A stretch of 64,000 nucleotides of DNA. It comes from Arenicellales bacterium. GTDB lineage: Bacteria; Pseudomonadota; Gammaproteobacteria; Arenicellales; Poriferihabitantaceae. Of the stretch, positions 16,687-63,092 are shown in pieces. Position 1 is the first letter of the stretch. Each line of letters opens with the position of its first letter. Position numbers and translations under genes: made by a program. Location of the stretch: positions 138,192-202,191 of the forward strand of contig CBDDOO010000002.1 of assembly GCA_965231905.1 (NCBI GenBank), written 5' to 3'. The notes beneath the pieces are model-generated. The model did not search any database and had not been told where the DNA came from. It saw nothing but the letters and a program-made list of their open reading frames with translations.

Positions 16687-16780
16687 GGATGGATTTGACT
16701 GTAAACTGTCATATAATCCTGTAAGAGATAATGATATCTGAATCCTTGACAAGGGTTCCGAGAGAACTTGTTACAATGAT

Positions 16781-16881
<101 letters not shown>

Positions 16882-17022
16882 GATTCTGTGCGGTATCTGG
16901 CGGCGGGTTCGAAGGCTCTGGTCCGTTCTGCCCGCTTGAGTTTTTGTTTTCCGCCGCTCGCGCAACGGCGCTCTCGTCGCGCCGCCTTTGTATGTGCGGC
17001 GCGGTCTTCGCCCCGTTTGAGG

Positions 17023-27555: not shown

Positions 27556-27566
27556 CGTTGTCAGCA

Positions 27567-29399: not shown

Positions 29400-29486
29400 T
29401 GATCAATATCCTCGTTGTGTTCTGGGCCGTGGTGTAAGAGATTCACGCTTTACGCAGTACCTGGTGCACAAGGCTGGGTTCACAGC

Positions 29487-32042: not shown

Positions 32043-32173
32043 TACGTGCTTGTCTTTATCTGGCCCTGATTATCAGTCACTGATGCTTCCCTCACCTTAA
32101 GTTTGGAAAATATAGTTGATGTGTTCACGATTGATCCTTGATCAGATGTAGTGATCATTATAAAGGACACCGC

Positions 32174-44307: not shown

Positions 44308-45123
44308 ATGCCAGAGCTTCCTGAAGTCGAAACAACCCTGAATGGAATTCGCCCCTTTTTGCAGGGGTTGAAGATTACCCGGCTTGATGTCCGACAACGA
44401 AATTTGAGGTGGCCGATTGCCGGAAACCTGGAAAGCGAGGTGAGCGATTCCGGGGTCGTCTGGTTGCAACGAAGGGGAAAATACATCCTGATCCACCTGG
44501 AGCGGGGCGGATTGATTGTTCACCTCGGGATGTCGGGTTCCATGAGGGTATTATTGAATGACGAGTCACCGGGCCGACATGACCATTTCGATATTATTAA
44601 CCAGCATGGACAGATCATTCGATACCGCGACCCCAGGAGATTCGGTTGCCTGCTCTACACACCGGACGATCCGTTGCAACATCCGAGATTGGTCAACCTC
44701 GGTGTCGAGCCGCTCAGTGACGATTTCACCGGACAGGGTTTGTACCGATTGTCCAGAAAACGGACTGCCCCGATCAAGTCATTCCTGATGGACGGTCGGA
44801 TCGTCGTTGGAGTGGGTAATATCTATGTCAGTGAGGCGTTGTTCCTGGCTGGAGTCAGCCCGGTTCGGCAATGCGGGAAAATATCCCTGAGTCGTTACCG
44901 GTTATTGGCAGAGGCCATCCGGACCGTCCTGATGAGAGCGCTCAGGCAGGGAGGGACGACCTTGCAGGATTTTGTCGGAGCGGACGGGGAGCCGGGATAC
45001 TTCACGCAATCCTTGTCCGTCTATGGGCGGGAGGGTGAAAAATGCCTGAAATGTCCAGCCACAATCAAAAGGCGGGTGATCGCCCAAAGGTCCACATTTT
45101 ACTGCCCGAAGTGCCAGACCTGA
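44308..45123 (+). CDS. mutM: formamidopyrimidine-DNA glycosylase
   Basis: 271 aa. MPELPEVETT N-terminus and a C-terminal zinc finger CLKC...FYCPKCQT. Confidence 0.93.
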   Translation: MPELPEVETTLNGIRPFLQGLKITRLDVRQRNLRWPIAGNLESEVSDSGVVWLQRRGKYILIHLERGGLIVHLGMSGSMRVLLNDESPGRHDHFDIINQHGQIIRYRDPRRFGCLLYTPDDPLQHPRLVNLGVEPLSDDFTGQGLYRLSRKRTAPIKSFLMDGRIVVGVGNIYVSEALFLAGVSPVRQCGKISLSRYRLLAEAIRTVLMRALRQGGTTLQDFVGADGEPGYFTQSLSVYGREGEKCLKCPATIKRRVIAQRSTFYCPKCQT

Positions 45124-45130
45124 CAGCCGG
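45096..45130 (+). repeat. 35-bp direct repeat, copy 1 (attL-like; last 28 nt of mutM including the stop, plus 7 nt)
   Basis: ATTTTACTGCCCGAAGTGCCAGACCTGACAGCCGG. 32/35 identical to 57043-57077. Confidence 0.85.
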
Positions 45131-45167
45131 GCCCGGCCGATTTGATTATTTCTCCCCAACGCATGTC

Positions 45168-45187
45168 ATTCCCGCGGAGGCGGGAAT
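45168..45187. repeat. GC-rich hairpin ATTCCCGC-GGAG-GCGGGAAT
   Basis: Perfect 8-bp stem read directly. Single copy in this window. Confidence 0.5.
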
Positions 45188-45273
45188 CTACAACCGATGC
45201 GCACTGACCGGTCATATCGTAGAAACAACCCTTTGTGGTTGTCCGATTTACATCAGGATGTCCACCATCAAGG

Positions 45274-46164
45274 TTACAGTTTTTCGGGGTCTGGCAACCT
45301 GGACAATATAATTCCCCCCAAAGTGATACATACCGACCCAATAATAACCGGCATCCCCAATTCTTCTCCGAACAGGAAATATCCGAGTAACGCGGCAAAA
45401 ACTATCCATGTGTAATTGATCGGTGTAACCAGGGCAACGTCTGCCAACTTATAGGCTATTACCCAACAATACTGGGCAGAAATTGCAATCGGCCCGAGTA
45501 AAATCATGAAAACCAGTTCCCCGATACCGGGGGTGTGCCAATTATAAAATGCCGGAACAGCCATGATAAATATCGAGAAAAAGTTTACATACAAAAGAAT
45601 AGTCAGCGGTCTTTCAGTAAATGTAAAAACTTTAATCAAAAGGCTTTCCACAGATAGCAAAAACGCGGCAAACAAAGCTAACCACAGGCCTATGCCCAGG
45701 TTTTCGAACAAAACTCCTTCGGTGGACCCGTAGACCACAATACAGGCTCCCATGCCGCAGAAAAAAGCTCCTGCCCATTGTATTTTTCTTACCTTCTCTC
45801 CCAGAAACAATATGGATAGCAGCATGGTTATTAATCCATCCGTTAATCCCAGGGCGGTGACATCTGCAATTGGTGATATGACCCCGGCATGTATGATGCA
45901 TACCCCGCCCATTGAGCCGCAAAGAGATCGGAGAAAATGATAGTGTGGACGCTTGCTGGAGTACTTTTTCAGACCTGAATCTTTTGAATTGGATCGCTTT
46001 ACCAGCACAACAATTGCGACCGTGAAAAATCCACTGACAAAACGGATAAACATGATTTGAAATGCTGATATTTCCCCACCAGTCAACTTTGCTGAAGCAT
46101 AGACCAGAGTAAACAACAGGGTGCCGAGCAGACCCCAGATTATTGCAGTTACTCCGTTGTTCAT
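45274..46164 (-). CDS. DMT-superfamily (EamA-like) transporter
   Basis: 296 aa, about 10 hydrophobic segments with duplicated EamA-like halves. GC is lower than in the neighbouring core genes. Confidence 0.75.
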   Translation of the reverse strand: MNNGVTAIIWGLLGTLLFTLVYASAKLTGGEISAFQIMFIRFVSGFFTVAIVVLVKRSNSKDSGLKKYSSKRPHYHFLRSLCGSMGGVCIIHAGVISPIADVTALGLTDGLITMLLSILFLGEKVRKIQWAGAFFCGMGACIVVYGSTEGVLFENLGIGLWLALFAAFLLSVESLLIKVFTFTERPLTILLYVNFFSIFIMAVPAFYNWHTPGIGELVFMILLGPIAISAQYCWVIAYKLADVALVTPINYTWIVFAALLGYFLFGEELGMPVIIGSVCITLGGIILSRLPDPEKL

Positions 46165-46253
46165 TATTGAGCGCCTTGAGCGTTTTCCAATCCAGAGATG
46201 AGCCTGAGGGGGCAGTATTTTGTGAGTCTATTGATCGACATTGAGAGTGGTTG

Positions 46254-47510
46254 TCAGGCGGCGTGACTTTGGGATTTGTTAAAAGATAGAAACAGTTTGT
46301 TGCGGGCTTTGTTGAGTCTTCGCGCGGCTTCATTATCACTGTATTTGTGAGCGAAGTCATCGAGTATTTTGAGTGTGATTCCGGATTTGAGATATTGCTG
46401 TGCATGGGGCAGGGAACGGAGTTTCTGGTACGGAGTCTGGATCAGTGAGTCCGGGTATTTGCGGATGCGTTTTCCCTGATTGTTGATTTCTTCCTTTGCG
46501 AACAAGCAGGGTCGGTGATAGTTCAGGTAGGGATTGAGGTCGTTTGTGAGGAAGTGGTTGACGGGTTGAGCGAAGCGCTGTGAGATGTGTTCGTATCCCA
46601 GATGCTTGCGGATGACGGAGCCGTTCTTGCCTTCGACCAGGGCGTTGTCATTGCTCTGTCGGGGACGGGATTTGGTTTGTTCGATCTGGAGTTTTTGCAG
46701 GAGTTTAGCGACTTGTCGATTGATATACTCTGAACCGTTATCGGAATGGAACCCCTGGAGCGTGAAGGGGAAGGCATCCAGGAGTTGATGCAGAGCCGGG
46801 ATGAGATAGCTTTCGGAGATTCTCTGTACACAGACCACGGCCTGCATCTGGGTGACTTCATCGACAGCATTGATGTGATACAGTCCCTTGATGCCGTCCT
46901 GATCGCCCTGATGGACGGTATCGACGCGCAAGAAGCCGGGACGGCCATCGGGTCTGGGTTTGCGTCGCTCCCCGATTCGCACGGGCGTATAGCGGGTCTT
47001 TTGGAAGTGTCGTCTCTGGCGCTGGTAGGAATCCGAGTGGCGCAGGTTGTACAAGTGTCCATTGGAGATGGCGGCCAGTCGCCGGTATCGGGTATCGCCG
47101 AATACCGAAAAAGCCCGTTCACACAGTTTCCGGGTGGCCGGGCCGGACAGGTTGCCGTGCAGGGTATCGGTTTCCACCAGTAAAGCCACATCTTCCGGGG
47201 TATAACGTCGACAGAAGGCATTGGCGGGTCGCCCCCGGCGATCCCGAATGCGGCCACTATCGCGGTATTGGCGGATCAGCCGGGTGATCTGGGCGCGGGA
47301 TAAGCCACTGACCTTCTCCAGGTAGGCTTTCACCACACCCCGGTCGGCCTTGCTCAATGCGCCATAACGCAACTGCCGCAGGCTGTCACAAATCCACGGA
47401 TAGGACTCCTCGCGGGACTGGGGTTCAAAATCAAAAGTAGTGGCTCCGTTCAAAAACGAACGAATCTCCTCCACCGTCTGTAAACGCTGGCTGTGTAATT
47501 TCACGATCAT
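46254..47510 (-). CDS. DDE transposase/integrase with rve (retroviral-integrase-type) core; IS family unresolved
   Basis: 418 aa. N-terminal HTH-like region and a DD(35)E triad (VDTVHQGD, FHSDNGSEY, NALVEGKN). Possible short inverted repeats: GAGAGTGGTTGTC (46243-46255) and GGACAACTCTCC (47592-47603). Confidence 0.75.
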   Translation of the reverse strand: MIVKLHSQRLQTVEEIRSFLNGATTFDFEPQSREESYPWICDSLRQLRYGALSKADRGVVKAYLEKVSGLSRAQITRLIRQYRDSGRIRDRRGRPANAFCRRYTPEDVALLVETDTLHGNLSGPATRKLCERAFSVFGDTRYRRLAAISNGHLYNLRHSDSYQRQRRHFQKTRYTPVRIGERRKPRPDGRPGFLRVDTVHQGDQDGIKGLYHINAVDEVTQMQAVVCVQRISESYLIPALHQLLDAFPFTLQGFHSDNGSEYINRQVAKLLQKLQIEQTKSRPRQSNDNALVEGKNGSVIRKHLGYEHISQRFAQPVNHFLTNDLNPYLNYHRPCLFAKEEINNQGKRIRKYPDSLIQTPYQKLRSLPHAQQYLKSGITLKILDDFAHKYSDNEAARRLNKARNKLFLSFNKSQSHAA

Positions 47511-47997
47511 CCTCCGATGATCCCAAAATCAGCCCCTTCAAACTCATCTCCCGTTGGAAATACAGCTTATCCTTCAGGCTCATCTTCCATTGGACAACTC
47601 TCCTTGTATGATAATTGTCAGTAATATAATACTATTATAAATTTTTATGCACGTTATATTTTATATAATAATTACTCTTATTATTCTTTTTCCCAATGCT
47701 CGGTATCATATTTATGCTTCTTTTTGATGTCTGGGAACTGATCGGAGAGAGATTTTAAGTTATGCCCTGATCGGGTTCTTTATTTCATTCTTTGAATAAA
47801 TTCTCAGAATAGACGAAACCGTTCCAGATTATGGGTTGGTCGCAAAGTGATCTGCGACCCGTAAAAACATGAAAATAGGTGGGTGCTTGACCAAGAGAAT
47901 TCAGGCGATGGCATTAATTCAAAGTGAAAACAAATTAAAAAGTACTAAGTGTGCTAGAGATAGCACAAACAAAAATTTTTAACCTGAGGGAATAGCT

Positions 47998-48189
47998 ATG
48001 GAAACACTTAAAAAAAGTAGCAAAAAGCCTACAATTGAAAACGGCAAACTCGATAGGCGCAGTAAAGTACGTATTACGGTAGATCTTACAGAAAAAGAAC
48101 ATAAAGCACTAAAAATCCATGCAGCAACAAAGGGAGTAACTAGTAGCACAATTATCCGTCGGTTGCTTCGAAAATACTGCAATCAGTAA
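47998..48189 (+). CDS. ribbon-helix-helix (CopG/ParG-like) DNA-binding protein
   Basis: 63 aa. Basic N-terminal tail, then RITVDLTEKEHKALKIHAATKGVTSSTIIRRLL (beta-strand, helix, helix pattern). Confidence 0.55.
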   Translation: METLKKSSKKPTIENGKLDRRSKVRITVDLTEKEHKALKIHAATKGVTSSTIIRRLLRKYCNQ

Positions 48190-48307
48190 TTCAGTAGAAT
48201 TTTGCAAGAAGTAAAGACTAAGTGCTATTAACAATACTTAGAAAAATAACCCATATATTTTTTAGGGGGTTACATAGAATGGCAGATGAACTAAAGGAGA
48301 GAGTTAA

Positions 48308-49065
48308 ATGAAACTATTGCCTGTCATTGATTCAACTATTCTAAAACTATTGACCAAAGATGTAAGTAAGATATTTGAGCTATCAAATGCATTTGGTTCT
48401 CCCATCCATATCCTGTTCCCACAAAACTTTTGTAATAACATCCTTTCTTTTAAGAATGTATTTGCAAAAAACAATGTAAATGGCTTGGTTTATTTTGCGG
48501 CGAAAGTGAATCGCTCAAATGTGTTCGTTAAAGAATCATTTAAAACGAAAATAGGTCTTGATGTTGCAAGCGAAAACGAGTTAAGAGCCGCCCTCAGCAT
48601 CGGAGTAAAAGGAAAAAATACCTGTATGTCTGGACCAATTAAAGATAAACCGTTTTTGAATCTTGGTATTAACGTCAACTCAACAATATCAATAGATTCG
48701 CTAGAAGAACTCGAGATCATATATTCGGTTGCGGATTCTCGGTCTTGTGAAAATGAGATCTATGTTTTGTTGAGATGGGAGGGCACTTCCTCCAATGCGA
48801 GTCGATTTGGGATGAATGAAAAGGAGATACTTCAAGCAATTAGGTCAATTAGGGCGAATAGTTCTAAAAAAGTAATACTCAGAGGATTCCACTTCCATAT
48901 ATTCGGATATTCTATAAAAGAGAGAGTGTCCAGTATTGAAAAACTATTAAGCTACATGGACTACTCCAAAGAGCAAGGACTTAGTCCATTTATGATTGAT
49001 ATTGGAGGTGGTTTCCCAGTCAACTACTTGGATCAGGAAAGCTGGGACAAATATCTAGTGCTTAA
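48308..49065 (+). pseudogene. fold-type III PLP-dependent decarboxylase (Orn/DAP/Arg decarboxylase family), 3' part lost
   Basis: YFAAKVN (PLP lysine context), HFHIFGY and IDIGGGFP. The reading frame is cut at the TTAA target of IS5 copy 2. Nine further in-frame nt (TCATGATGA) survive at 50266-50274. Confidence 0.8.
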
Positions 49066-50261
49066 GGAAAGTCTGAACAATACGAGTTTTGGGGATTTTG
49101 GGTAGTCATTTTTGTAAATCCGGGATATGAGTGGGTCTGAAAGACAGAATGGCCCGGAATCAGTGAGCGGGAGCGGGGAAATACAAGCATTCTCCCCCTC
49201 TTTTCATTTTTCAGGCGTACGTAGCCTGCAGTTTCAACCGCCTTTGTCTCAACAGTACTTTCTTCGCCATCACCAGATTGCTTAAGGCACAGGCCACAAC
49301 CAGTCGATGCGTGTTCTTCTCCAGCCCCCGGTAACGAACCCGGGTAAAACCGAACTGCCGCTTGAGAATACCGAACTGATGTTCCACCTTCGACCGTATC
49401 CGGGACTTGGTTCGATTCTTCAAGCGCTCCTTCTCCGTCAATTTGCGGTAGCGCGTCCCCTTCGAATGAGTGAAATCCTTCGCCTCCGGCGCTACCTGTG
49501 AAATCACCGCCTTCTGACCCGTATAGGCCGAGTCTCCCCATACACGGGTCTCTTTCCCGTGCAGAAGTTCCGGCAGAACCTGTGAATCATGAACATTCGC
49601 CGGCGTAGCCACCACCGAATGAATCAGCTTGCTGCGACTGTCCACACCGATATGCGCCTTCATACCAAAGTACCATTGCTGCCCCTTGCGCGTCGAGTGC
49701 ATCTGGGGGTCTCGTTTCTTCTCCCGGTTCTTGGTCGAACTCGGTGCGCAGATGATGCTGGCATCCACGATCGTACCCCGATTCACCTTCAGTCCGTTCT
49801 CACCCAAATATTCATTGACCAGTCCGAACAATCGTTCCCCCAGGTTATGCTTCTCCATCAGATGACGAAACTTGCAGATCGTGGTCTCGTCGGGAGCCGG
49901 CTCCCGACCCAGGTCTATGCCCACAAACCGGCGCATCGACAACGAATCGTACAACGCTTCCTCGGCAGCCGGGTCCGAAAGACTGAACCAGTGTTGCAGA
50001 AAGTGAATCCGAAGCATCCGGTCTATTCCAATCGGCCTGCGGCCTGCCCCTTGCGGTTTGGGATAAAAAGGTTCGATGACTGCATTCAACTCCACCCACG
50101 GAATGATTTGCTCCATCTCATCCAGAAAACGCTCCTTGCGCGTCTGTTTCTTGTATTTGTCAAATCCAGCTTCGGAAAAAGTACTCTGGCGCATCGGAAA
50201 TATCTCCAGTCAGTATGAAGTACAAAAATTATACAATAGAAACTGATTAATCAGAGATTCC
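49066..50261 (-). mobile_element. IS5-family insertion sequence, copy 2 (1196 bp)
   Basis: Same ends as copy 1. TTAA on both sides (49062-49065 and 50262-50265). Confidence 0.9.
49211..50194 (-). CDS. IS5-family DDE transposase
   Basis: The 327-aa protein is identical to copies 1 and 3. Three nucleotide differences were seen, all synonymous. Confidence 0.92.
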   Translation of the reverse strand: MRQSTFSEAGFDKYKKQTRKERFLDEMEQIIPWVELNAVIEPFYPKPQGAGRRPIGIDRMLRIHFLQHWFSLSDPAAEEALYDSLSMRRFVGIDLGREPAPDETTICKFRHLMEKHNLGERLFGLVNEYLGENGLKVNRGTIVDASIICAPSSTKNREKKRDPQMHSTRKGQQWYFGMKAHIGVDSRSKLIHSVVATPANVHDSQVLPELLHGKETRVWGDSAYTGQKAVISQVAPEAKDFTHSKGTRYRKLTEKERLKNRTKSRIRSKVEHQFGILKRQFGFTRVRYRGLEKNTHRLVVACALSNLVMAKKVLLRQRRLKLQATYA

Positions 50262-50274
50262 TTAATCATGATGA

Positions 50275-51470
50275 GGAAAGTCTGAACAATACGAGTTTTG
50301 GGGATTTTGGGTAGTCATTTTTGTAAATCCGGGATATGAGTGGGTCTGAAAGACAGAATGGCCCGGAATCAGTGAGCGGGAGCGGGGAAATACAAGCATT
50401 CTCCCCCTCTTTTCATTTTTCAGGCGTACGTAGCCTGCAGTTTCAACCGCCTTTGTCTCAACAGTACTTTCTTCGCCATCACCAGATTGCTTAAGGCACA
50501 GGCCACAACCAGTCGATGCGTGTTCTTCTCCAGCCCCCGGTAACGAACCCGGGTAAAACCGAACTGCCGCTTGAGAATACCGAACTGATGTTCCACCTTC
50601 GACCGTATCCGGGACTTGGTTCGATTCTTCAAGCGCTCCTTCTCCGTCAATTTGCGGTAGCGCGTCCCCTTCGAATGAGTGAAATCCTTCGCCTCCGGCG
50701 CTACCTGTGAAATCACCGCCTTCTGACCCGTATAGGCCGAGTCTCCCCATACACGGGTCTCTTTCCCGTGCAGAAGTTCCGGCAGAACCTGTGAATCATG
50801 AACATTCGCCGGCGTAGCCACCACCGAATGAATCAGCTTGCTGCGACTGTCCACACCGATATGCGCCTTCATACCAAAGTACCATTGCTGCCCCTTGCGC
50901 GTCGAGTGCATCTGGGGGTCTCGTTTCTTCTCCCGGTTCTTGGTCGAACTCGGTGCGCAGATGATGCTGGCATCCACGATCGTACCCCGATTCACCTTCA
51001 GTCCGTTCTCACCCAAATATTCATTGACCAGTCCGAACAATCGTTCCCCCAGGTTATGCTTCTCCATCAGATGACGAAACTTGCAGATCGTGGTCTCGTC
51101 GGGAGCCGGCTCCCGACCCAGGTCTATGCCCACAAACCGGCGCATCGACAACGAATCGTACAACGCTTCCTCGGCAGCCGGGTCCGAAAGACTGAACCAG
51201 TGTTGCAGAAAGTGAATCCGCAACATCCGGTCTATTCCAATCGGCCTGCGGCCTGCCCCTTGCGGTTTGGGATAAAAAGGCTCGATGACTGCATTCAACT
51301 CCACCCACGGAATGATTTGCTCCATCTCATCCAGAAAACGCTCCTTGCGCGTCTGTTTCTTGTATTTGTCAAATCCAGCTTCGGAAAAAGTACTCTGGCG
51401 CATCGGAAATATCTCCAGTCAGTATGAAGTACAAAAATTATACAATAGAAACTGATTAATCAGAGATTCC
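50275..51470 (-). mobile_element. IS5-family insertion sequence, copy 3 (1196 bp)
   Basis: Same ends as copy 1. Left flank is ATGA and right flank is TTAA, so there is no matched target duplication. Confidence 0.9.
50420..51403 (-). CDS. IS5-family DDE transposase
   Basis: Identical to the copy 1 protein. Confidence 0.92.
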   Translation of the reverse strand: MRQSTFSEAGFDKYKKQTRKERFLDEMEQIIPWVELNAVIEPFYPKPQGAGRRPIGIDRMLRIHFLQHWFSLSDPAAEEALYDSLSMRRFVGIDLGREPAPDETTICKFRHLMEKHNLGERLFGLVNEYLGENGLKVNRGTIVDASIICAPSSTKNREKKRDPQMHSTRKGQQWYFGMKAHIGVDSRSKLIHSVVATPANVHDSQVLPELLHGKETRVWGDSAYTGQKAVISQVAPEAKDFTHSKGTRYRKLTEKERLKNRTKSRIRSKVEHQFGILKRQFGFTRVRYRGLEKNTHRLVVACALSNLVMAKKVLLRQRRLKLQATYA

Positions 51471-51474
51471 TTAA

Positions 51475-52031
51475 GAGTTCAAAACCCAAATCTCCATGTA
51501 ATAGCCGTTGATCATAATCTGAGCGTATTATTTGGACCGACGTCAGATAGTGTCTCAGAGCTTTGTAGGGAGAGTTATAACAGCCTACTCGGAATGGGAG
51601 CAGATATAGTGTCTCAAAACTTAGACCATACACAGTGCGATGAAGTACATTGGATCCCTGTTTCAAAAATGGTGGAAGCTGTTCATTATATTCACAGGAA
51701 ATATGGAGTATTAGTTGGGCCTACGGGTGGTGCGGCTCATGTGGCTGCGGATTGGTATGCAAAAACAAATCCAGGAAAGCGAGTATTTACGGTATTCCCG
51801 GACCATGGTGTGAGATATGCAGACACTATTTTCAACTATCACTGGCTAAGAAGACATAATGTAGATTTGGAGAGGAAGTATAGCAACCCAACTACGGTAA
51901 TTTGTCCAACTAAAGTGGGTGCAGGATGGGAACGATTCCCTTGGGGACGTCGTACATATAAAGAAATACTTGGACACTCTCCAGTACCAAGGTCCGGTAA
52001 TAGGAAAAACTTTGGCAAGGATGCTGCTTAA
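51475..52031 (+). pseudogene. C-terminal fragment of a fold-type II PLP enzyme (CysK/CBS/SbnA-like)
   Basis: The frame is open from the IS junction: RVQNPNLHVIAVDHNLSVLFG...GMGADIVSQNLD...DEVHWIPVSKMVEAV...GVLVGPTGGAAHVAA...VFTVFPDHGVRY. The N-terminal half, including the PLP lysine, is absent. Confidence 0.75.
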
Positions 52032-52057
52032 CTAGGAATAATTTTGAGGAGAAGAAA

Positions 52058-52786
52058 ATGCGAAACAGTTATCTTAGCGCAGAACAGCTCTATAACAAAC
52101 TAAGCGAGATATATAAGTCAACTGATGAGGATTGGAATGAATGGGTAAGACAAACCCAGACAATACAGGAAGTTTTGCTCAGAGAATACTGCCCAAACGT
52201 AAGAACCATACTCGACTGTGCGGCAGGCATAGGTACACAGTCGTTAATTTACTCTAGTATGGGATATGAGGTTACAGCAACCGATATCTCGGAGAAATCC
52301 TTGGTTAAATTAGAGAACGAGGCCCGAAACAAGAATCTAGATGTCGTCACAAAAAAATGTGAATGGTCGAATTTGGCAAATATTTTCTCGAGGGAATCTT
52401 TTGATTTGGTAGTTTGTTTTGCGAATTCATTGGCCCATTGTCCAGATAATAAGTCGCTCGTTGAGGCAGTTAGCAATATGTCTAGAGTACTTAAAAAAGA
52501 TGGGAAGATCCTGTTAAGTGTCAGAGACTACGACGTAATAATTAAAGAAAGAATAACCGGAACACCAGCAGATAGAAAAGAGGCAGATATTTATTATCAG
52601 GAATGGGAATGGGTGGATAATCTACGTTACCATGCAGAGTGGTTTATACGCGCAGAATCTCAAGGAAAAACACTAATGAGAGCAATATGCAAAGAAGAAA
52701 TAATTGAGATAGGAAAATTATTGGATCTACGAGTGAAATTTAGAAAAGATCTTTACGAAATGGTAGTTGTTATACTAACTAAGTGA
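52058..52786 (+). CDS. class I SAM-dependent methyltransferase, glycine/sarcosine N-methyltransferase-like
   Basis: 242 aa. ILDCAAGIGTQSL (motif I), VTATDISEKSL, DLVVCFANSLAHCPD and VLKKDGKILLSVRDYD resemble GNMT-type enzymes. AT-rich. Confidence 0.65.
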   Translation: MRNSYLSAEQLYNKLSEIYKSTDEDWNEWVRQTQTIQEVLLREYCPNVRTILDCAAGIGTQSLIYSSMGYEVTATDISEKSLVKLENEARNKNLDVVTKKCEWSNLANIFSRESFDLVVCFANSLAHCPDNKSLVEAVSNMSRVLKKDGKILLSVRDYDVIIKERITGTPADRKEADIYYQEWEWVDNLRYHAEWFIRAESQGKTLMRAICKEEIIEIGKLLDLRVKFRKDLYEMVVVILTK

Positions 52787-52898
52787 CCTGGTTATTTTCG
52801 TTTGTCTAGTGATTTCGTATAGACTACTAAACACGACGGCCCACTTCTGTGTAAATGTTGTCGCATAGATTTTTTGTTAGAGTAATCGGTAACAGTAT

Positions 52899-54053
52899 AT
52901 GAGGCAACTTGATGAGACAGATATATGTGCAGAACTTAGTTGGTGTCAAGTCTCTCAATATCTAAAGTGGAAAACCGTCAAGGATGGATATTTGCCTATG
53001 GATAGTGGAGAGCATGATTATAGACCTGCCGATCAGGTAAAAAAGTACTTGTTGGAAGCTCTTGATCGCAATCAGATGTCATATGGTCCTTTAACAGGAC
53101 TAGAAGAAGCAATATCTTGTACGACCAAATTACAATCACATCAGCATGATTATCTGTTATCTCCAGAGTGTTTCACATTTTGCCCATCGGCCACAGTAGC
53201 GTTGGCTCTTTGTTCTGGGGCGTTACTAGCACCGAATGATCATGCTATATTCCTAGGATCCCCAATCTATTATGCCCTAATTAATCCAGTGCTCTCCCTG
53301 GGGGCTGATACAACTATTGTGCCGTTTACAAAAAGCGGGGATGTGGATATCGGAAACTTGGAAGGTTCAATTAGAACTAATACAAAAATAATATTTATTA
53401 CAAACCCACATAGCCCGACTGGAGAAACGTATAGTTTAGAAGATCTGCGAAAAGTTGCGTCAATATGTGAAAAAAATAATATAGTCGTAATATCAGATGA
53501 AGTATATGAACATTTTGTTATGGAAGGGCAACATACGCCTTTATACAAGAGTCATGATTATTTTCTAAAGAATGGCATAGTGATCAGTAGCCTTTCTAAG
53601 TGTTTTAATGTTACAGGCGCAGGTGCAGCATTTTTAGTTGCCAATCCACATTTAATAAAGGCTATCGAAAATTATTATGGTGGTCCGATTTTCATGACTT
53701 CGATCATTGCTCAACTAATTACACAAGGCTGTGCCGAATTTTCAGAATGGATTCCAGAATTTGTTAATAAATTAAAAATATCTAGAGATAAAATAGTACG
53801 AGGCCTTTCTAATCTTCCAAGAATAAATTTTATATCGCCTGATGCAGGAATGTTTATTTGGATCACAATTGATTACAAAAATTCAAAACCGGTATGCGAG
53901 GCGTTAGCTGAACAAGCTAAAATTAAAGTCTATCCATCTACATATTTTGCTGGTGGTGAACCCAACCAAGTACGAGTGAACTTTGCTACACACCCAGAAG
54001 TAATTGAAGTATTTTTAGAACGCTTTGGAATTTGGTTGACATCTCGTACGTAA
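52899..54053 (+). CDS. class I/II PLP-dependent aminotransferase
   Basis: 384 aa. FITNPHSPTGE, ISDEVYEHF and SSLSKCFNVTGAG (SxSK PLP lysine). The last ~6 codons lie inside the inferred end of the adjacent IS. Confidence 0.8.
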   Translation: MRQLDETDICAELSWCQVSQYLKWKTVKDGYLPMDSGEHDYRPADQVKKYLLEALDRNQMSYGPLTGLEEAISCTTKLQSHQHDYLLSPECFTFCPSATVALALCSGALLAPNDHAIFLGSPIYYALINPVLSLGADTTIVPFTKSGDVDIGNLEGSIRTNTKIIFITNPHSPTGETYSLEDLRKVASICEKNNIVVISDEVYEHFVMEGQHTPLYKSHDYFLKNGIVISSLSKCFNVTGAGAAFLVANPHLIKAIENYYGGPIFMTSIIAQLITQGCAEFSEWIPEFVNKLKISRDKIVRGLSNLPRINFISPDAGMFIWITIDYKNSKPVCEALAEQAKIKVYPSTYFAGGEPNQVRVNFATHPEVIEVFLERFGIWLTSRT

Positions 54054-54826
54054 ACTTTTGTAAGCTTCCCCGAAACTCAATACAACCGTATTGCCTCGCT
54101 ACTCCCGAAGCAGCGAGGCAATGTCAGTTTTTCGAATCTGCAAGTGCTCAACGGCATTCTGTATGTGGCAGAGCACGGCTGCAAGTGGCGTGGTCTGCCG
54201 GAGCGGTTCGGCAATTGGCACACGATCTACACACGAATGAACCGATGGTCGAAGAACGGCGTTCTGGACCGGGTGTTCGAACAACTGCAGCGAGACCAGA
54301 TCGTTCGAATCAAAGTCGAGGCGTTTGGTCTCGACAGCGCCAGCATCAAGGTACACCCGGACGGCACGGGCGCCCGAAAAAAAACGGAGCGCAATCCATC
54401 GGCAAGTCCCGTGGCGGCTGGAACACCAAGCTTCATATGGTTGCCGCGGATGCTCGAACAGCGACTGCCTTCACGCTCTCCCCCGGTAACGCCCATGATG
54501 CCCCGGAGGGACGAAAGCTCCTGAGCCGACTGGAGAAACCATCGAACAGCCCGGCGCTGATCATGGATCGGGCATACGAAGACGATGCCACTCGCCAGTG
54601 GGTACTCAACTGCGGATTCATTCCTGTGGTTCCACCAAAGAGCAACCGGGTCGCTCCCTGGCAGTACGACCGGGAACTCTACAAGCGGCGAAACGAGGTA
54701 GAGCGGTTGTTCCGGCGGCTCAAAGGCTTCCGCAGGATCTTCTCACGCTTCGACAAACTCGATGTCATCTTCCTCGGATTCATCGTTTTCGTGCTCATCA
54801 TTGATTTATTACGATAGTGTTAACAC
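54035..54826 (+). mobile_element. small IS5-family element (IS427/IS1031-like); boundaries tentative
   Basis: Abrupt AT-rich to GC-rich switch near 54040. Imperfect terminal repeats: GTTGACATCTCGTACGTAAA on the left and, on the reverse complement of the right end, GTTAACACTATCGTAATAAA. Confidence 0.5.
54144..54817 (+). CDS. IS5-family transposase OrfAB; needs a -1 frameshift at the A8 run (54377-54384)
   Basis: Frame A reads ...VLNGILYVAEHGCKWRGLPERFGNWHTIYTRMNRW...IKVHPDGTGARKK. Frame B continues NGAQSIGKSRGGWNTKLHMVAAD...IMDRAYEDD...NEVERLFRRLKGFRRIFSRFDK. No canonical start codon precedes the conserved LPETQYNRIASLLP segment (54069-54110). Confidence 0.7.
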
Positions 54827-54896
54827 GCCCTAGTAGAGACTCCCGGTAGAATAACCGCAGGAGGTACTCGTGAGAAAATCGCACGGTTCTATGAGG

Positions 54897-55571
54897 GACG
54901 GGGCGCGACAACGGGAGAGTATAAAGATTTCTGTGTAAATGGTCGTGGATCATGTCAGACAGGCACCCTGTCACCGTACAGGATAATAAACTGATTGAGT
55001 GCAGCCTTCCAGTCCCGGATCGGCATGGTCCATTTTTTCGATGCGTTTTTCAATCCCAGGTACAGTAATTTCCGGATGGTGTCATCATGGGGAAAGGCTC
55101 CTCGCCCCTGGATGATCTTCCTCAGACGCTCCCAGTTCCGCTCCCAGCCCGACGTGGTCGCCGAATAGTGCTCACCCCAGTGTCCGGCAAACGCACCCAG
55201 GGCAACTCTGACGGCCTCCACCGTCGGTGCCGTGTAGACCGCCCGCAGGTCAGCGGCTACCCGCTTGCGATCTTTCCAAGTGACGCACCTCAAGCTGTTG
55301 CGGACCTGATGCACGATACACAACTGAACCTGGGTATGCGGATACACGGTCTCAATGGTTTCCGGCAGTCCCTTCAACCACGCATTTTCGAAGTTGATTC
55401 ATCAGGCCGTCCAGACCCATAACCGCTTCGGTATTGCCCTTGAAATCTTCGAGAAGCTCGTCGAGTAGGAATTCTTGTTTTTCAGTCAGCTTGGTCATCT
55501 TTTCCCCTATGGGAAGTATAATGGATGACCATTTACACAGTTTTGTTTACACCCTCGGCAACGGCCCCGTC
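54897..55571 (-). mobile_element. internally deleted IS256-family element (675 bp)
   Basis: Terminal inverted repeats GACGGGGC...CTGTGTAAATGGTC are present at both ends (54897 onward, and the reverse complement of 55571 going inward). Only about 180 codons of transposase remain. Confidence 0.75.
54955..55497 (-). pseudogene. IS256-family (mutator-type) transposase remnant
   Basis: The N-terminal ~38 codons (MTKLTEKQEFLLDELLEDFKGNTEAVMGLDGLMNQLRK) are joined out of frame near 55380 to the C-terminal 140 codons (GLPETIETVYPHTQVQLCIVHQVRNS...). The catalytic middle is missing. Confidence 0.8.
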
Positions 55572-55579
55572 TACTCGGA

Positions 55580-56683
55580 CTACCGATGAAACAAATCTTT
55601 GATGGATAGGTTGGAGTAATACTTCGGTAAACTTTCAACTATTAGTCTATTATTTCGATCTAAATACTTTTTATCCATTGTTGTTTGAGCCCACCTGATA
55701 ACACGATCAATAAATGGGGTATCAACCCCTAACAAGACTGCAACATATTTAATAAAACACAACCCAAATGGAATGTCATCCTTGAAGTAACGATGGTTTG
55801 CGTCTGAATGAATGTTTCTATCAACTGTTATATTTTGTAACGACTCCGAATTGGCAATACATTGATGCATGTTGCTACCGCTTATGCCCCATCGATTGTT
55901 CCATTCAGAGAGGATCGAAGAGTTGTTTATATTTAACCTGTTATCTAATTCATTTAATGCGTCAACAACTTTTATTCTTTCATTGTCCAATTCCTCGACA
56001 GCCGCACCTGACATGTACGCTACGTTTCCATAAAAGTAAGGGCTTGATGAGTGTACTAAATATCGACCATAGCAAATCCCAGGATGCAACAAGCTGTTAG
56101 ACGGAAAGAAGCTTTCAGTCGAAAATGCTATAAGTCTAATATTTTTGGATTTGTCAGTATGTATGCTTCGAATCCACTCTAAGTGATCATCATAAATATT
56201 AGAGTTTTTGCGTATAGCCAAGTCACAGCTCTGATCTCCTGTATTGTTAACCCGCTCGCCATATTTCACTATACGACACACTCATGGAATTTGGACAAAT
56301 GCAAAACATGGATATCCATAACCAATTGTAAAATCCACCATTTTGTCAAATCTTGCTTGACCAAATATGGTGCCAACCAGAGTATTTTTTGAAATAAAGG
56401 GTGCCAAATTCGATAATATCTCGATTTGAACATGTACCGGGCTACATATAAAAACAACATTCGCAGATTTCACATGTTTGTAATCATTTGTTACTTTAAA
56501 AAATTCTCCATTAAAACACTTGTCAGTGGGTGTATAGCACATATCTACTCCGTAATCGGTCCATTCATTCGGACGGCGTGTAATTAATATCGTATTAATC
56601 TTGCTTCGCGTCAATAAATTAACTAGGACATGTGCACTGTTACCACCGCCAACAACAGCTACAGTTAAAGGGCCAGATTCCAT
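55580..56683 (-). pseudogene. opine (octopine/nopaline-type) dehydrogenase with an in-frame TGA
   Basis: ORFs 56282..56683 and 55580..56281 are contiguous in one frame, separated only by TGA (56282-56284). N-terminal Rossmann VAVVGGGNSAHVL. C-terminal HRYFKDDIPFGL...GVDTPFIDRVIRW resembles the Octopine_DH domain. Confidence 0.7.
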
Positions 56684-57042
56684 AAATGGTTCCGAAGCTA
56701 TGTGATTGGCAAAATGAATTTTTCGTGAATTTGTAAGATCATGTCGGATTAAATGTGAACAATACCCATAGTCATGAATATATTGATTAACGATTCGAGA
56801 GAAATTACATGGGTGAATTTATAGTGTTAAAAACACTTCTACAGCTAGCAAAAAACAAATAACACCAACAAAACTAAACCGCAAATTGTTACTGCATTAC
56901 TGAGCTCTCGACTTGTTAAAGAACCAGAACTAAATGATTTGGTAAATAATTAACTGATACCGCCAGTATCTGTTATGAGACAAGTAACGGACTTACTTCG
57001 AGGAAGGTAAGCCCCAATTCCGCGATAGAAGTGTTTTGGTAT

Positions 57043-57077
57043 ATTTTACTGCCCGGAATGTCAGACCTGACAGCCGG
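57043..57077 (+). repeat. 35-bp direct repeat, copy 2 (attR-like; mutM 3'-end look-alike)
   Basis: ATTTTACTGCCCGGAATGTCAGACCTGACAGCCGG. It still reads IFYCPECQT-stop. Confidence 0.85.
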
Positions 57078-59728: not shown

Positions 59729-59755
59729 GAGGATAGAGGTCTTGCGCCACTATCT

Positions 59756-60364
59756 CTAATCCGGGGAATGTTGATCAATCTCTGTATGAAGTTTGTTCAA
59801 GGAGGATAATACCTTGTCCCTCAATTCCAGAGCTATGACTCGCGTAAGTTTTTCCACATCTATGCCCTCATCATACGCCACTTCGTGTATTTTGTTATAC
59901 AGATCAATATGATTCTCCTTTAATTCCTGTAGCAGTTCTTCTCTGGATAATGAAAAACAGTATTCTTGTATCTGGTACGCATTAAGCTCTTTGACAGCGT
60001 GAGTTGCTCTGTCTATTTGCATTTCTGCTATCTCTGAAGCGCTGATTTTTTGAGATAGATTTTTTCCATAATCAGTCAAGGATATCGGACTGGTGACTCT
60101 TTCAAGTGGCTCTCCGGGTAGTCGTTTGAATATCTCTTTTATATCCTCACTGATTCTATCCAATTTATTGGATAGACCTGTTGTAAGAGTTTCCAGCCCA
60201 CCCAATCGGGTTTCTGTCTTCTCTATCCTGTGCTCTATCCCGGAATGCCATTTTGATACGCGCCATAGTAAAATCGCTCCGCCGACAATTACCCAGGCTA
60301 AAGGATTCCCGATAATTTCGAGTATTATTGAAAGGGAACCTGAATCCTGTTGAGTAATTCTCAT
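59756..60364 (-). CDS. hypothetical membrane-anchored coiled-coil protein
   Basis: 202 aa. One N-terminal TM segment (LAWVIVGGAILLW), followed by heptad-like charged sequence. Low GC. I recognise no family. Confidence 0.5.
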   Translation of the reverse strand: MRITQQDSGSLSIILEIIGNPLAWVIVGGAILLWRVSKWHSGIEHRIEKTETRLGGLETLTTGLSNKLDRISEDIKEIFKRLPGEPLERVTSPISLTDYGKNLSQKISASEIAEMQIDRATHAVKELNAYQIQEYCFSLSREELLQELKENHIDLYNKIHEVAYDEGIDVEKLTRVIALELRDKVLSSLNKLHTEIDQHSPD

Positions 60365-60753
60365 CTTATCTCCTTAATCTGTTCAATCTGAGTGAATTGT
60401 CAATGGCGCGATCTGTTAACCGAAACATTGATTGACAAAACCTGATTTTTTGGCAATGTCTATACTACAGTCAGTCAGATGATAACATGATGAGCAAGAG
60501 AACCGCCAAAACATTATCCCTGAATGAGACAAGTCCCGCACAAGCCGGAATCCACAGTTATCGGGCAGGCGCGGAGACCCGCCCTGCATCGTTCGGGCAG
60601 GAGTTAGTTACTAAGCGTTTGGACAACACTCTGGTTTTTGACGGAATCCCCGGAAAAGACTATAATCCGGGAGCTTTCCACCATGTGGCGGCCTTATGAC
60701 GCGCACATGCCCTGACTTTCAGATAATTTTATATTCTCAGTGACGAGGACATT

Positions 60754-60936
60754 ATGGCTGTACAAAAAAATCGTAAAACACCATCAAAGCGTGGTATGCG
60801 CCGCTCTCACGATGGTCTCAAAAAACCAACCGTGTCGATTGATCCGGTTACCGGAGAAGAGCACAGGCGTCATCATATTACTGCCGATGGCTATTATCGC
60901 GGGAAGAAAGTGGTCGAGATCAGAGCTGGAAGTTGA
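60754..60936 (+). CDS. rpmF: 50S ribosomal protein L32
   Basis: 60 aa. [20 protein letters not shown]. Confidence 0.95.
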
Positions 60937-61010
60937 CATTCCATTTTGTACGCGGAACACCTTGCCAGGGTGGCTTGTGTCGTAACTCCGGCATTTACAG
61001 CTTCCGGTAG

Positions 61011-62024: not shown

Positions 62025-62063
62025 TGCAGTTTACCGGCCATTAGTGATCGCACTCACGGACAG

Positions 62064-63032: not shown

Positions 63033-63092
63033 CCGCCGGTCCCGAGAGGCGAATTACGAGTGAATAGCGATTGAAAACAGCAGACGAGTCCA

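Follow-up and report, generated by a model that had tools for sequence, protein, structure and literature searches.

Several integrase-borne elements lie in the 3′ ends of protein-coding genes and carry a surrogate gene end, as do phage 21 and e14 in icd, SGI1 in trmE/thdF, GIsul2 in guaA, and ICESt1/3 in fda. Degenerate islands that have att sites and no integrase, the cis-mobilisable elements (CIMEs), have been described for streptococcal ICE remnants. The "hot spot", a defence island or variable region between conserved core genes, is a general concept. Nobusato et al. reportedly described an "insertion with long target duplication" of restriction-modification (R-M) units in 2000. Integrase-borne islands and prophages in the 3′ ends of protein genes are treated in PMC2297512 and PMC9376610, and the insertion of R-M units with long target duplication was analyzed by Furuta, Abe and Kobayashi in 2010 (PMC2853133), who set a limit of 30 bp between integrase repeats and "long target duplications". 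Among the cases they give are 46-bp repeats (44/46 identical) that lie over gene 3′ ends and border low-GC inserts without mobility genes, and the repeat identity in the class is ~95% (PMC2853133).

We describe here an island of 11.9 kb (island A, 45131-57042) between two copies of the mutM 3′ end in a 64-kb stretch of DNA, which we call the window. The account we favour, to which we give an even chance, is that a recombinase integrated the island site-specifically and was lost afterwards.

Results

The repeat and the gene that it ends are as follows.
44308..45123, + strand: mutM (formamidopyrimidine-DNA glycosylase), 271 aa, intact, C-terminal zinc finger included
45096..45130, + strand: direct repeat copy 1, which takes in the final 28 nt of mutM (stop codon among them) and the next 7 nt
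57043..57077, + strand: direct repeat copy 2, an orphan mutM 3′ end reading FYCPECQT and a stop codon, plus 7 nt

The two copies of 35 nt have the same orientation and are identical at 32/35 positions, with mismatches at positions 14, 16, and 19 and perfect blocks of 13 nt to the left and 16 nt to the right of them. Coordinates, sequences, and identity agree with those of an earlier note on this DNA, as does the in-frame reading of copy 2. Both copies keep the open frame, the zinc-finger cysteines, and the stop codon. MutM has the Pfam domains Fapy_DNA_glyco, H2TH, and zf-FPG_IleRS, and copy 1 completes the gene functionally. The pair gave a blastn E-value of 8.9e-07 (15.5-kb region against the 64-kb window), which puts it well outside chance. 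The 35-mer is not a dispersed repeat, a case the earlier note had named as refuting its reading: no third copy occurs in the window at 24/35 or better, the 16-nt right block is matched nowhere else there, even with up to three mismatches allowed, and the 20-kb loci of eight relatives each hold a single copy, always at the mutM end. The 35-mer of relative L166 matches copy 1 at 35/35 and copy 2 at 32/35. The MutM end PKCQT is native in L165 and L166, and PECQT is native in L169, of which the FYCPECQT peptide of copy 2 is the native MutM C-terminus. The three mismatches are compatible with two alleles that already existed, rather than with a recent duplication. At copy 2 the GC content steps from ~35% to ~50%.

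In three close relatives (L162, L163, and L166; MutM 83-90% identical), mutM is followed after 190-320 bp by rpmF-plsX-fabH-fabG. Because these empty sites have nothing more, the DNA between mutM and rpmF in the window is an insertion, and the repeat copies coincide exactly with the insert boundary that the empty sites set, as the earlier note had supposed in saying that the repeat brackets inserted DNA. Among relatives with the same synteny, MutM identity is 78-90%. The core genome returns in the following region.
60633..63842, + strand: core genome resumes, with the rpmF promoter region, rpmF (60754-60936), plsX (61011-62024), fabH (62064-63032), and fabG (63093-63842)

This region has Pfam matches and aligns collinearly (77-92% identity) with what lies immediately 3′ of mutM in L162-L166 and L170. 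Since core synteny is back only at 60633, the total insert is 15.5 kb (45131-60632) and has two layers, island A and an apparently older Type ISP remnant layer (57101-60364); the ~11.9 kb given previously holds for island A but not for the whole insert. The cargo of the mutM-rpmF spacer differs among relatives: some have a Type ISP R-M gene, others a Type III R-M system with GmrSD or small ORFs, and some nothing. Across the clade this spacer is a general hot spot of variable DNA. Homologous exchange could be the source of some of this variation. The neighbouring ferredoxin-reductase gene shows mosaic similarity among relatives, which indicates that such exchange is frequent in the clade.

Three features lie between copy 2 and the core genome.
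57078..57100, + strand: native mutM-downstream spacer remnant, ~23 nt, ending at a deletion junction
57101..59728, + strand: remnant of a single-polypeptide Type ISP (LlaGI/LlaBIII-like) R-M gene, with an 857-aa ORF left at 57155-59728
59756..60364, − strand: 202-aa ORF that travels with the Type ISP gene, GC 41%

The 16 nt right of 57077 match the native mutM-downstream spacer of L162 at 12/16 in a fixed register (P ~4e-5), the next best of 45 pairs reaching 6/16, and this match identifies copy 2 as the displaced original end of the locus. The deletion junction shares CGGTGG with the L166 spacer and the interior of the restriction gene, and the best explanation is that copy 2 was later fused by deletion to that interior. 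The Type ISP gene has lost its first ~1.48 kb (the Mrr nuclease and the N-terminal helicase half) and an in-frame 867 bp. Homology begins at LlaBIII residue 482 (phmmer against the PDB), the PADLOC profile REase_MTase_IIG is matched from position 486/1646, and the remnant has 88-94% DNA identity to the full-length L168 gene from L168 nt 1647, with L168 2027-2893 absent. In L164 and L168 the gene lies 226 bp 3′ of mutM, and L164 has a different, independent deletion in it. The 202-aa ORF has the same position in L164 and L168 (~88-90% DNA identity) and is a 64-bp relic in L165; Pfam gave nothing above threshold for it, FlaC_arch being hit faintly, and NCBIfam and PADLOC gave no match. With GC3 values of 0.51 and 0.38, the Type ISP gene and the 202-aa ORF are foreign too. 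The earlier expectation that mutM of relatives adjoins the sequence right of 57077 survives through the spacer match and the 226-bp distance, but the sequence beyond the ~23 nt is not core genome.

Island A contains the following features.
45131..45273, no strand: left inner arm, 143 bp non-coding, ~54% GC
45274..46164, − strand: EamA/DMT-family transporter, 296 aa (Pfam EamA, 3.5e-23)
46196..47585, − strand: IS481-like IS, 418-aa HTH+rve transposase (46254-47510), 15-nt inverted repeats at its ends
47998..48189, + strand: small, AT-rich ribbon-helix-helix (RHH; CopG/ParD-like) ORF, 63 aa
48308..49065, + strand: N-terminal fragment of a PLP-dependent (Orn/DAP/Arg-type) decarboxylase (Pfam Orn_Arg_deC_N positions 14-210/247 only)
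49066..50261, − strand: IS5-family IS, 1196 bp, 327-aa transposase (NCBIfam IS5_4, 3e-108)
50275..51470, − strand: second IS5 copy, 9 nt past the first, no matching TTAA on its left
51594..52031, + strand: C-terminal fragment of a PALP-fold (cysteine-synthase-like) enzyme, weak Pfam PALP match
52058..52786, + strand: SAM-dependent methyltransferase (Pfam Methyltransf_25/11), AT-rich, GC 38%
52899..54053, + strand: class I/II PLP aminotransferase, 384 aa, apparently intact (Pfam Aminotran_1_2, 9e-44), GC3 0.27
54032..54817, + strand: IS5-family (IS5_3 type) transposase ORF (NCBIfam IS5_3, 5e-38, profile positions 102-256/258)
54915..55556, − strand: internally deleted IS256-family remnant, 140-aa transposase fragment (54955-55377), 39-nt imperfect inverted repeats
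55580..56683, − strand: opine (octopine/nopaline-type) dehydrogenase pseudogene (Pfam Octopine_DH, 2e-23, and N-terminal NAD-binding matches)

All the contents reported earlier were found, namely the EamA transporter, the rve transposase, the RHH gene, the AT-rich biosynthetic genes, and five IS copies or remnants (one IS481-like, two IS5, one further IS5-family, and one IS256 remnant). The island is compositionally mosaic, its left 1.1 kb having 44-54% GC and the remainder ~36%. The AT-rich genes have 36-43% GC and GC3 of 0.27-0.38, against GC3 of 0.62-0.64 in core genes, and the EamA gene is intermediate (GC 44%, GC3 0.475) and had no DNA match in the relatives' loci. The left arm has a perfect, REP/dRS3-like hairpin at 45168-45187 (ATTCCCGC-GGAG-GCGGGAAT), and its first 16 nt had no match to the relatives' mutM-downstream spacers (at most 6/16). 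Matches of the RHH ORF were weak (RHH_1, ParD, and NikA-like, E 0.004-0.05, all under the Pfam cut-offs), as was the PALP match (E 0.004; 16.9 bits against a cut-off of 35; profile positions 240-295/295 only). The nearest homologue of the aminotransferase in a collection of 5.8 billion proteins, the source genome's own copy excluded, is 44% identical.

Island A is heavily decayed, with IS copies, truncated biosynthetic genes, and an opine dehydrogenase gene that one in-frame stop (56282-56284) splits into adjacent ORFs of 133 and 233 aa in one frame. The first IS5 copy, whose insertion cut the decarboxylase gene short, has TTAA target duplications at 49062-49065 and 50262-50265, and it is 99.75% identical to the second copy and to another at 2893-4088. 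Since the second copy has no TTAA on its left, an IS-associated deletion is indicated; around the pair, the decarboxylase has lost its C-terminus and the PALP enzyme its N-terminus. The IS5_3-type ORF, an IS or IS fragment of host-like GC, abuts the aminotransferase gene with a GC jump. The IS256 fragment spans positions 235-318/379 of Pfam Transposase_mut and 196-289/338 of NCBIfam IS256. The IS481-like transposase matches Pfam rve, has NCBIfam IS481 as its best match yet below the cut-off, and has a GC3 of 0.644; the rve gene was rejected as the island integrase, being an ordinary IS transposase of host-like composition.

The earlier note had stated that no tyrosine or serine integrase is present, and our search agrees: no such recombinase domain was found in the island ORFs or any large ORF of the window, and six-frame translations of two non-coding stretches of the island (47560-48320 and 56660-57160) held no recombinase remnant. 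No tRNA, tmRNA, or Rfam RNA was found in the window. That mutM is not a usual integration site is likewise upheld, as 166 other mutM loci had no second copy of the mutM end within 10 kb, among the genes adjoining mutM in 123 loci no integrase family turned up more than once, and the searchable literature holds no report of mutM as such a site. One exact-pattern scan of viral contigs gave no attP-like match. The lack of a recombinase gene or remnant and of any identified mutM-targeting integrase counts against a recombinase origin, as does a repeat length of 35 nt, just above the 30-bp limit for integrase repeats (PMC2853133).

A second island in the window (27308-32422) encodes an XamI-type endonuclease, an Eco57I-type methylase, and GmrSD, and had no integrase. 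On both sides of it stands a copy of the 3′ end of an ABC-ATPase gene, a duplication of 248 nt with 96% identity that begins 1 nt inside the stop codon, and the island fits the class of insertions with long target duplication fully. As an integrase-less island of the same geometry, it suggests that the lineage may gain islands at gene ends without integrases. This second island, the mosaic composition of island A, and the hot-spot nature of the mutM-rpmF spacer also count against a recombinase origin.

Discussion

We infer that a site-specific recombinase made the junctions of island A and that its gene was lost via IS-associated deletion. A horizontally acquired integrative element would have entered by conservative site-specific recombination at an attB reaching from 28 nt before the end of mutM to 7 nt after it, carrying its own look-alike of the mutM 3′ end, 32/35 identical, so that mutM was left intact with copy 1 completing it. 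Strand exchange could have taken place in either perfect block, 13 nt left or 16 nt right. Copy 2 would be the other hybrid site, pushed 11.9 kb off with its native spacer still attached; native spacer right of copy 2 and none right of copy 1 is as expected for attR = P-O-B′ and attL = B-O-P′. A repeat that runs from inside the 3′ end of a gene to 7 nt past its stop codon has the classic surrogate-gene-end geometry. The Type ISP gene and the 202-aa ORF may have been in the recipient already or have come later, and a microhomology-mediated deletion would then have joined the Type ISP gene, at a point inside it, to the spacer ~23 nt past the att site. Host IS elements would have invaded the island, parts of which were truncated or deleted, presumably including the recombinase gene; the loss around the IS5 pair, with one copy lacking a target duplication and both neighbour genes truncated, is evident. 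The island would now be immobile unless a recombinase acts in trans.

Of the attL/attR architecture proposed in the earlier note, the bracketing of the insert stands, but an integrase need not be its source, because a long target duplication gives the same geometry. We consider it possible, though rather doubtful, that host recombination or repair inserted the segment without an integrase and duplicated ~35 nt of target. The segment was possibly a circle with a short piece of a relative's mutM end, and the mismatches would have arisen as the orphan copy drifted, or because donor and recipient had different alleles. This would suit the absence of an integrase or remnant, the integrase-less second island with its 248-nt repeat, and the finding that both 35-mers are alleles native to the clade, and the class itself is documented (Furuta et al. 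2010, PMC2853133); with divergence of 4%, as in the 248-nt repeat, a stretch of 35 nt would not be unlikely to show at least three mismatches (P ~0.17, Poisson estimate). However, the class is documented for R-M units and its mechanism is without experimental demonstration, whereas island A has biosynthetic and transport genes and no R-M, and 35 nt is the short extreme of the class and typical of att sites. Efficient RecA recombination in E. coli has a minimum of roughly 25 nt, and the longest perfect block here, 16 nt, falls below it.

It is improbable, in our judgement, that a chromosomal fragment came in from a related donor in which island A was already at mutM. One end would have recombined homologously in or upstream of mutM and the other illegitimately at CGGTGG in the recipient Type ISP gene, so that a single event brought in island A together with copy 2 and ~23 nt of the donor's spacer, at the cost of the recipient spacer and of 1.48 kb from the 5′ end of the restriction gene. 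The adjacency would be explained without a separate deletion, the abrupt switch from ~23 nt of L162-type spacer to the restriction gene at CGGTGG would follow, and the ferredoxin-reductase mosaicism speaks for frequent exchange. Yet mutM itself shows no recombination breakpoint, a separate deletion is just as simple (L164 has a different one in the same gene), and the origin of the repeat is merely moved to the donor, where a recombinase or a target duplication would still be needed. It is scarcely credible that the repeat is a chance match, a dispersed repeat, or a transposon target-site duplication with no bearing on the arrival of the island. Only the absence of an integrase favours this; the E-value, the two copies in 64 kb and one per relative locus at the mutM end, and the exact match to the empty-site boundary all oppose it, and as far as the available sequence allows it is already refuted. 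The ends of island A have no terminal inverted repeats, so it is not a transposon, and to our knowledge the target duplications of DDE transposases are far shorter than 35 nt.

Recombinase-mediated integration, our favoured account, sets island A beside the integrase-borne islands. Like them, it has imperfect direct repeats of tens of nucleotides that cover a gene 3′ end and a few bases, leaves its target gene intact, is absent from relatives with a single attB-like copy, and carries cargo of foreign base composition. Unlike them, it lacks an integrase, an excisionase, or a remnant of either, and the searchable literature does not list mutM among att sites. The insertion site is unusual, but the island is of an ordinary kind. 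With the CIMEs it shares att-like repeats, the lack of recombination and transfer genes, and a tandem arrangement with another foreign segment; it differs in that no cognate ICE or integrase for the mutM site is known or was found and in that the neighbouring Type ISP remnant carries no att repeat itself. As in long target duplication, the repeats exceed 30 bp against a single copy in the empty genome, overlap a gene 3′ end, and enclose a low-GC insert without an integrase, but island A is free of R-M genes, and its repeat is about as short as the class allows. Hot-spot turnover by flanking homologous recombination alone makes no gene-end direct repeat, in contrast to island A, while the mutM-rpmF spacer resembles the hot spots in holding different cargo in different relatives.

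The repeat at the 3' end of mutM

Two copies of a 35-mer, in the same orientation and 32/35 identical, bracket 11.9 kb of DNA (45131–57042, here island A) that begins at the 3' end of mutM.

44308–45123: mutM, with Fapy_DNA_glyco, H2TH and zf-FPG domains
45096–45130: copy 1, ATTTTACTGCCCGAAGTGCCAGACCTGACAGCCGG, the last 28 nt of mutM plus 7 nt
57043–57077: copy 2, ATTTTACTGCCCGGAATGTCAGACCTGACAGCCGG, in-frame translation ...FYCPECQT*

The sequence of both copies agrees exactly with the coordinates and identity reported in the earlier note, and in-frame translation bears out its reading of copy 2 as FYCPECQT followed by a stop. Both copies encode FYCP(K/E)CQT and then a stop, and mutM, rebuilt by sequence brought by the element, has its full length and an undamaged zinc finger. 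The three differences between these direct repeats of the target gene's end (35 nt, 32/35) are flanked by perfect blocks of 13 and 16 nt, and the pair gives a blastn E value of 8.9e-07 within the window. As far as the available sequence goes, a chance match and a dispersed repeat were both excluded as sources of the pair. No third copy was found in the window, where no other site exceeded 25/35 and the right-hand 16-mer had no further match at ≤3 mismatches; nor was any tRNA, tmRNA or Rfam RNA found there.

The mutM-rpmF interval in related genomes

Relatives were found by a word-indexed protein search (MutM 78–90% identical), and the fetched contigs, representing nine loci around mutM (L162–L170), were compared by blastn. 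Like the source genome, these close relatives are contigs from long-read metagenomes. Pattern-based MutM scans, run over genome and metagenome contigs, were dominated by the generic MPELPEVE motif and returned only relatives of ≤58% identity, of no use in looking for an empty site. The upstream order hemC-hemD-hemX-hemY, ferredoxin reductase, mutM is kept in eight of the nine relatives; in L167 only the reductase adjoins mutM, and the downstream synteny also differs.

The empty site that the earlier note had proposed to look for is present in L162, L163 and L166 (MutM 90, 88 and 83% identical), in which mutM is followed by 190–320 bp and then by rpmF-plsX-fabH-fabG-acpP. Each of these uninterrupted sites has a single copy of the 35-mer. 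Translation of the L162 and L163 spacers gives ...TPMEYDQRLIQTTC*, a sequence that we take to resemble the C-terminus of an IS3-family transposase. Other relatives have filled the interval in different ways. L170 has one 200-aa ORF ahead of rpmF, and in L165 the interval holds ~1 kb of unrelated DNA that includes a poly-C run, along with a 64-bp relic of a 202-aa ORF. In L164, a Type ISP restriction-modification gene with a large internal deletion begins 226 bp past mutM and is followed by the 202-aa ORF and rpmF; L168, a strain variant from the same sample, has the full-length Type ISP gene, broken only by a 15-G tract. After mutM, other defence genes take up at least 10 kb in L169; they encode a Type III R-M system, GmrSD and PDDEXK_9/AAA proteins. 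Across this clade, the mutM-rpmF spacer (~10817–12300 in L162–L170, 45131–60632 in the window) is a hot spot for variable DNA.

The single 35-mer of L166 is identical to copy 1 (35/35) and matches copy 2 at 32/35. In L169 the native MutM has the C-terminal peptide of copy 2, FYCPECQT*, and the 35-mer there is 32/35 identical to that copy. Judged from these sequences, both copies are alleles natural to the clade. The differences at three positions may predate the insertion. Within the ferredoxin-reductase gene, window 43324–43574 is 91–95% identical to L166 over ~250 nt, although L166 otherwise belongs to the more distant relatives (~80–86%); this mosaic is a signal of homologous exchange among these lineages. 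A sliding-window breakpoint search in mutM recovered mosaicism in the neighboring gene and nothing decisive at the mutM end.

The junction to the right of copy 2

Collinearity of the window with the relatives ends at 45123–45133, depending on the relative, and restarts at 60633–60637. From these points the whole insert amounts to 15.5 kb, made up of island A and a remnant to its right that is common to L164, L165 and L168.

57155–59728: ORF for the C-terminal two-thirds of a single-polypeptide Type ISP restriction-modification enzyme
59756–60364: 202-aa ORF, unassigned product, GC 41%

Homology of the Type ISP ORF to LlaBIII in a PDB search starts at residue 482, and its PADLOC match starts at position 486 of the 1646-position REase_MTase_IIG profile. 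Both ORFs are of non-host composition, and core DNA therefore does not restart at 57078. The earlier picture of an island between the repeats stands, with the amendment that the DNA to the right of copy 2 is also foreign and the insert is 15.5 kb. A model of tandem islands with three att sites is unsupported, because the Type ISP segment does not have a degenerate third copy of the repeat at its right end.

Homology to the intact Type ISP gene of L168 begins at window 57101 (L168 nt 1647, ~1.48 kb into the gene), and the window copy lacks L168 2027–2893, an in-frame loss of 867 bp. The same gene is found in three independent states of decay: 5' truncation and the in-frame 867-bp deletion in the window (57101–59728), a 4.5-kb internal deletion in L164 (11043–11378), and near-complete loss in L165. 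In L168 the 15-G homopolymer (1584–1598), which may provide phase variation, divides it into ORFs of 480 and 1149 aa.

In fixed register, the 16 nt that directly follow copy 2 (ATATCCCGTGCGGAGG) agree at 12/16 with those that directly follow the L162 35-mer (ACATCCTGTGTGGACG), with a chance probability of ~4e-5. The runner-up among 45 pairwise flank comparisons reaches 6/16, and for the flank of copy 1 there is no match. The motif CGGTGG lies at the switch point, and it is present both in the native spacer of L166 and in the restriction gene. Together, the spacer match and this motif show that ~23 nt of the true spacer downstream of mutM follow copy 2, and that a microhomology deletion has fused this spacer to the inside of the restriction gene. 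In relatives that lack the AT-rich genes of island A, mutM does adjoin the sequence to the right of 57077, an adjacency on which the earlier note had made its island depend.

Contents and decay of island A

Island A contains the following features, those without coordinates lying in its AT-rich backbone.

45168–45187: perfect hairpin ATTCCCGC-GGAG-GCGGGAAT in the left arm (143 bp, ~54% GC)
45274–46164, minus: EamA transporter gene, GC 44%
46196–47585: IS481-like IS, 1.39 kb, 15-nt inverted repeats, HTH+rve transposase, host-like GC3
RHH ORF
PLP-decarboxylase (Orn/DAP-type) fragment, cut by an IS5 copy
PALP-enzyme C-terminal fragment, weak match
SAM methyltransferase gene
Class I/II aminotransferase gene, apparently intact
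IS5-family transposase ORF, after the aminotransferase gene
IS256 remnant, internally deleted
Opine dehydrogenase gene with one in-frame stop (nonsense mutation)

The hairpin of the arm is shaped like the REP/dRS3-type repeats of other proteobacteria, with similar copies in loci from Pseudoxanthomonas (L050) and Herminiimonas (L053). In the present clade it does not form a repeat family. The backbone has a GC content of 32–43%, and its genes have GC3 values of 0.27–0.38 versus 0.62–0.64 for mutM, plsX and fabH. The count of five IS copies or remnants made in the earlier note holds. An IS5-family IS of 1196 bp occurs in three copies in the window (49062–51474 and 2889–4092) that are ≥99.75% identical and target TTAA. 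Two of them lie 9 nt apart inside island A, and the second lacks the left TTAA duplication, which indicates that an IS-associated deletion there removed the C-terminus of the decarboxylase and the N-terminus of the PALP enzyme. Near the third copy, an IS110-family (DEDD) transposase gene (5992–7104) adjoins a fused sarcosine-oxidase-like gene.

The AT-rich cargo (45274–46164 and 48308–56683) resembles a small-molecule pathway that has been broken, with EamA as its possible exporter, and judging by its gene content the product may have been an opine-type or siderophore-like compound. Homologues of the aminotransferase are rare, the nearest from another genome being 44% identical; the one homologue context examined (L161) is an unrelated NRPS/radical-SAM cluster without an integrase or a link to mutM. 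Searches of the backbone against plasmids by blastn and tblastn gave nothing informative. Island A is now a wreck, with pseudogenized cargo and full of IS elements, and its present-day effect on the host is probably nil, perhaps excepting the EamA transporter.

Search for a recombinase

The statement of the earlier note that no integrase is present was confirmed. No tyrosine or serine recombinase lies next to the att site in island A, no ORF of the island or of the rest of the window has a recombinase domain, and six-frame Pfam scans of two non-coding stretches (47560–48320 and 56660–57160) returned the RHH ORF only. The rve protein was rejected as the integrase of the island because it lies inside a 1.39-kb IS with inverted repeats of its own and has host-like codon composition, and because DDE enzymes, to our knowledge, never make 35-nt imperfect repeats.

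A second copy of the gene end within 10 kb was found in none of 166 other mutM loci, and no integrase family was common to two or more genes adjacent to mutM among 123 loci, in which the commonest neighbors were dynamin-like proteins, MutY, CoaD and RsmD. No cognate element or integrase using the 35-mer site was found within 10 kb of mutM in the nine relatives or in these 166 and 123 loci, and in viral contigs an attP-like sequence, sought as an exact pattern, had 0 matches. The searchable literature yielded no report of the mutM 3' end as an att site. These loci and the literature agree with the earlier claim that mutM is not a usual integration site, and its 3' end appears to be unreported as a target.

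A second island and other repeats in the window

27308–27555 and 32175–32422: 248-nt direct repeat, 96% identical, 10 mismatches
32174–33262, minus: ABC-transporter ATPase gene

The 248-nt repeat starts 1 nt inside the stop codon of the ATPase gene, and its second copy consists of the 3'-terminal 246 nt of this gene and two bases of the stop codon. Between the copies lies a 4.9-kb block of host-like GC that encodes a XamI-type endonuclease, an Eco57I-type methylase and GmrSD. No integrase was found in the block (27308–32422), which has both R and M genes, has no other mobility genes and is smaller than 20 kb. In gene content and geometry, it fits the "insertion with long target duplication" described for R-M units (PMC2853133).

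Two further repeats were seen. At 16782–16877, ~24 tandem copies of GCCA occupy the extreme 5' end of a 1793-aa ORF with Calx-beta domains (16780–22161), in a segment of 62–65% GC, and this may be a contingency (phase-variable) locus. At 12460–12564, a 35-nt unit occurs in three tandem copies, with 66–74% identity to the first; they lie at the start of a FAD-dependent oxidoreductase (DAO) gene (11219–12463, minus) or slightly upstream of it.

Origin of island A

Conservative site-specific integration at the mutM 3' end, by a recombinase that has since been lost, is the best explanation we can offer, and we hold it with no better than even confidence. The element would have entered by conservative site-specific recombination at this gene end, with strand exchange in either of the perfect blocks of 13 or 16 nt. 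It would have rebuilt mutM, leaving the displaced gene end attached to its native flank, and the recombinase gene would have disappeared during the IS-driven decay of island A, a decay that is demonstrable from the tandem IS5 copies, the missing target duplication and the truncated neighbors. We prefer this explanation because the repeat is imperfect, tens of nucleotides long and extends from inside a gene to just past its stop, and because the gene is rebuilt, the displaced end carries native flank, the composition is foreign and the empty sites are single copy. Our confidence is limited because no remnant of an integrase is present, no integrase with specificity for mutM is known or turned up in the searches, and a documented integrase-free class, of which the window holds an apparent case, gives the same picture. 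The attL/attR architecture read by the earlier note is upheld by the repeat, the empty sites and the rebuilt gene, but the recombinase was not found and an integrase-free route fits too. Insertion of a DDE transposon or IS composite was excluded: the ends of the island have neither terminal inverted repeats nor a short target-site duplication, and the repeat is 35 nt long and imperfect.

It is possible, but in our judgment rather unlikely, that the mutM repeat was made without an integrase, by an insertion with long target duplication. The lack of an integrase remnant in island A and the presence in the same window of a second island of the same geometry that fits this class speak for such an origin; however, island A does not have the R-M cargo that defines the class. 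We are a little more doubtful still of the general form of this idea, that this uncultured gammaproteobacterial lineage repeatedly captures foreign DNA at the 3' ends of core genes, with duplication of the gene end and no element-encoded integrase, for which 64 kb provides two cases: a 35-nt repeat at mutM enclosing metabolic cargo, and a 248-nt repeat at the ABC-ATPase gene enclosing R-M/GmrSD cargo. Arrival of island A on a chromosomal fragment from a related donor, with one end recombined homologously and the other joined at the CGGTGG microhomology, seems improbable; such an arrival would account for the deletion by a single event, but only shifts the origin of the repeat to the donor.

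Implications

If site-specific integration is correct, the mutM 3' end joins the protein-coding att sites, which would be useful to island-finding software and to integrase prospecting, and the clade would have an as yet unseen recombinase family with specificity for the mutM end. If the insertion was integrase-free, the window offers two neighboring examples of island capture with gene-end duplication, and if such capture is repeated, Kobayashi's "insertion with long target duplication" would extend past R-M units to general cargo. The firmest product of the analysis is the layered mutM-rpmF insertion hot spot reconstructed across nine related genomes.

Comparison with known systems

The integrase-free class of "insertion with long target duplication" was described by Furuta et al. 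2010 (PMC2853133), whose examples include 46-bp repeats, 44/46 identical, that overlap gene 3' ends around low-GC inserts. It was defined by a repeat of >30 bp aligning to a single copy in an insert-free genome, and by an insert of <20 kb with both R and M genes and no other mobility genes. The 35-nt repeat and the single copy in L166 agree with the first part of this definition, but island A differs in having no R-M genes and five IS copies or remnants. We do not file it among the integrase-bearing islands either, because a recombinase was looked for and is absent. Island A works like an integrative genomic island or CIME, being att-flanked and without recombination or transfer genes, and as a phenomenon it is ordinary: an island in decay, bounded by copies of a gene end and lying in a variable hot spot.
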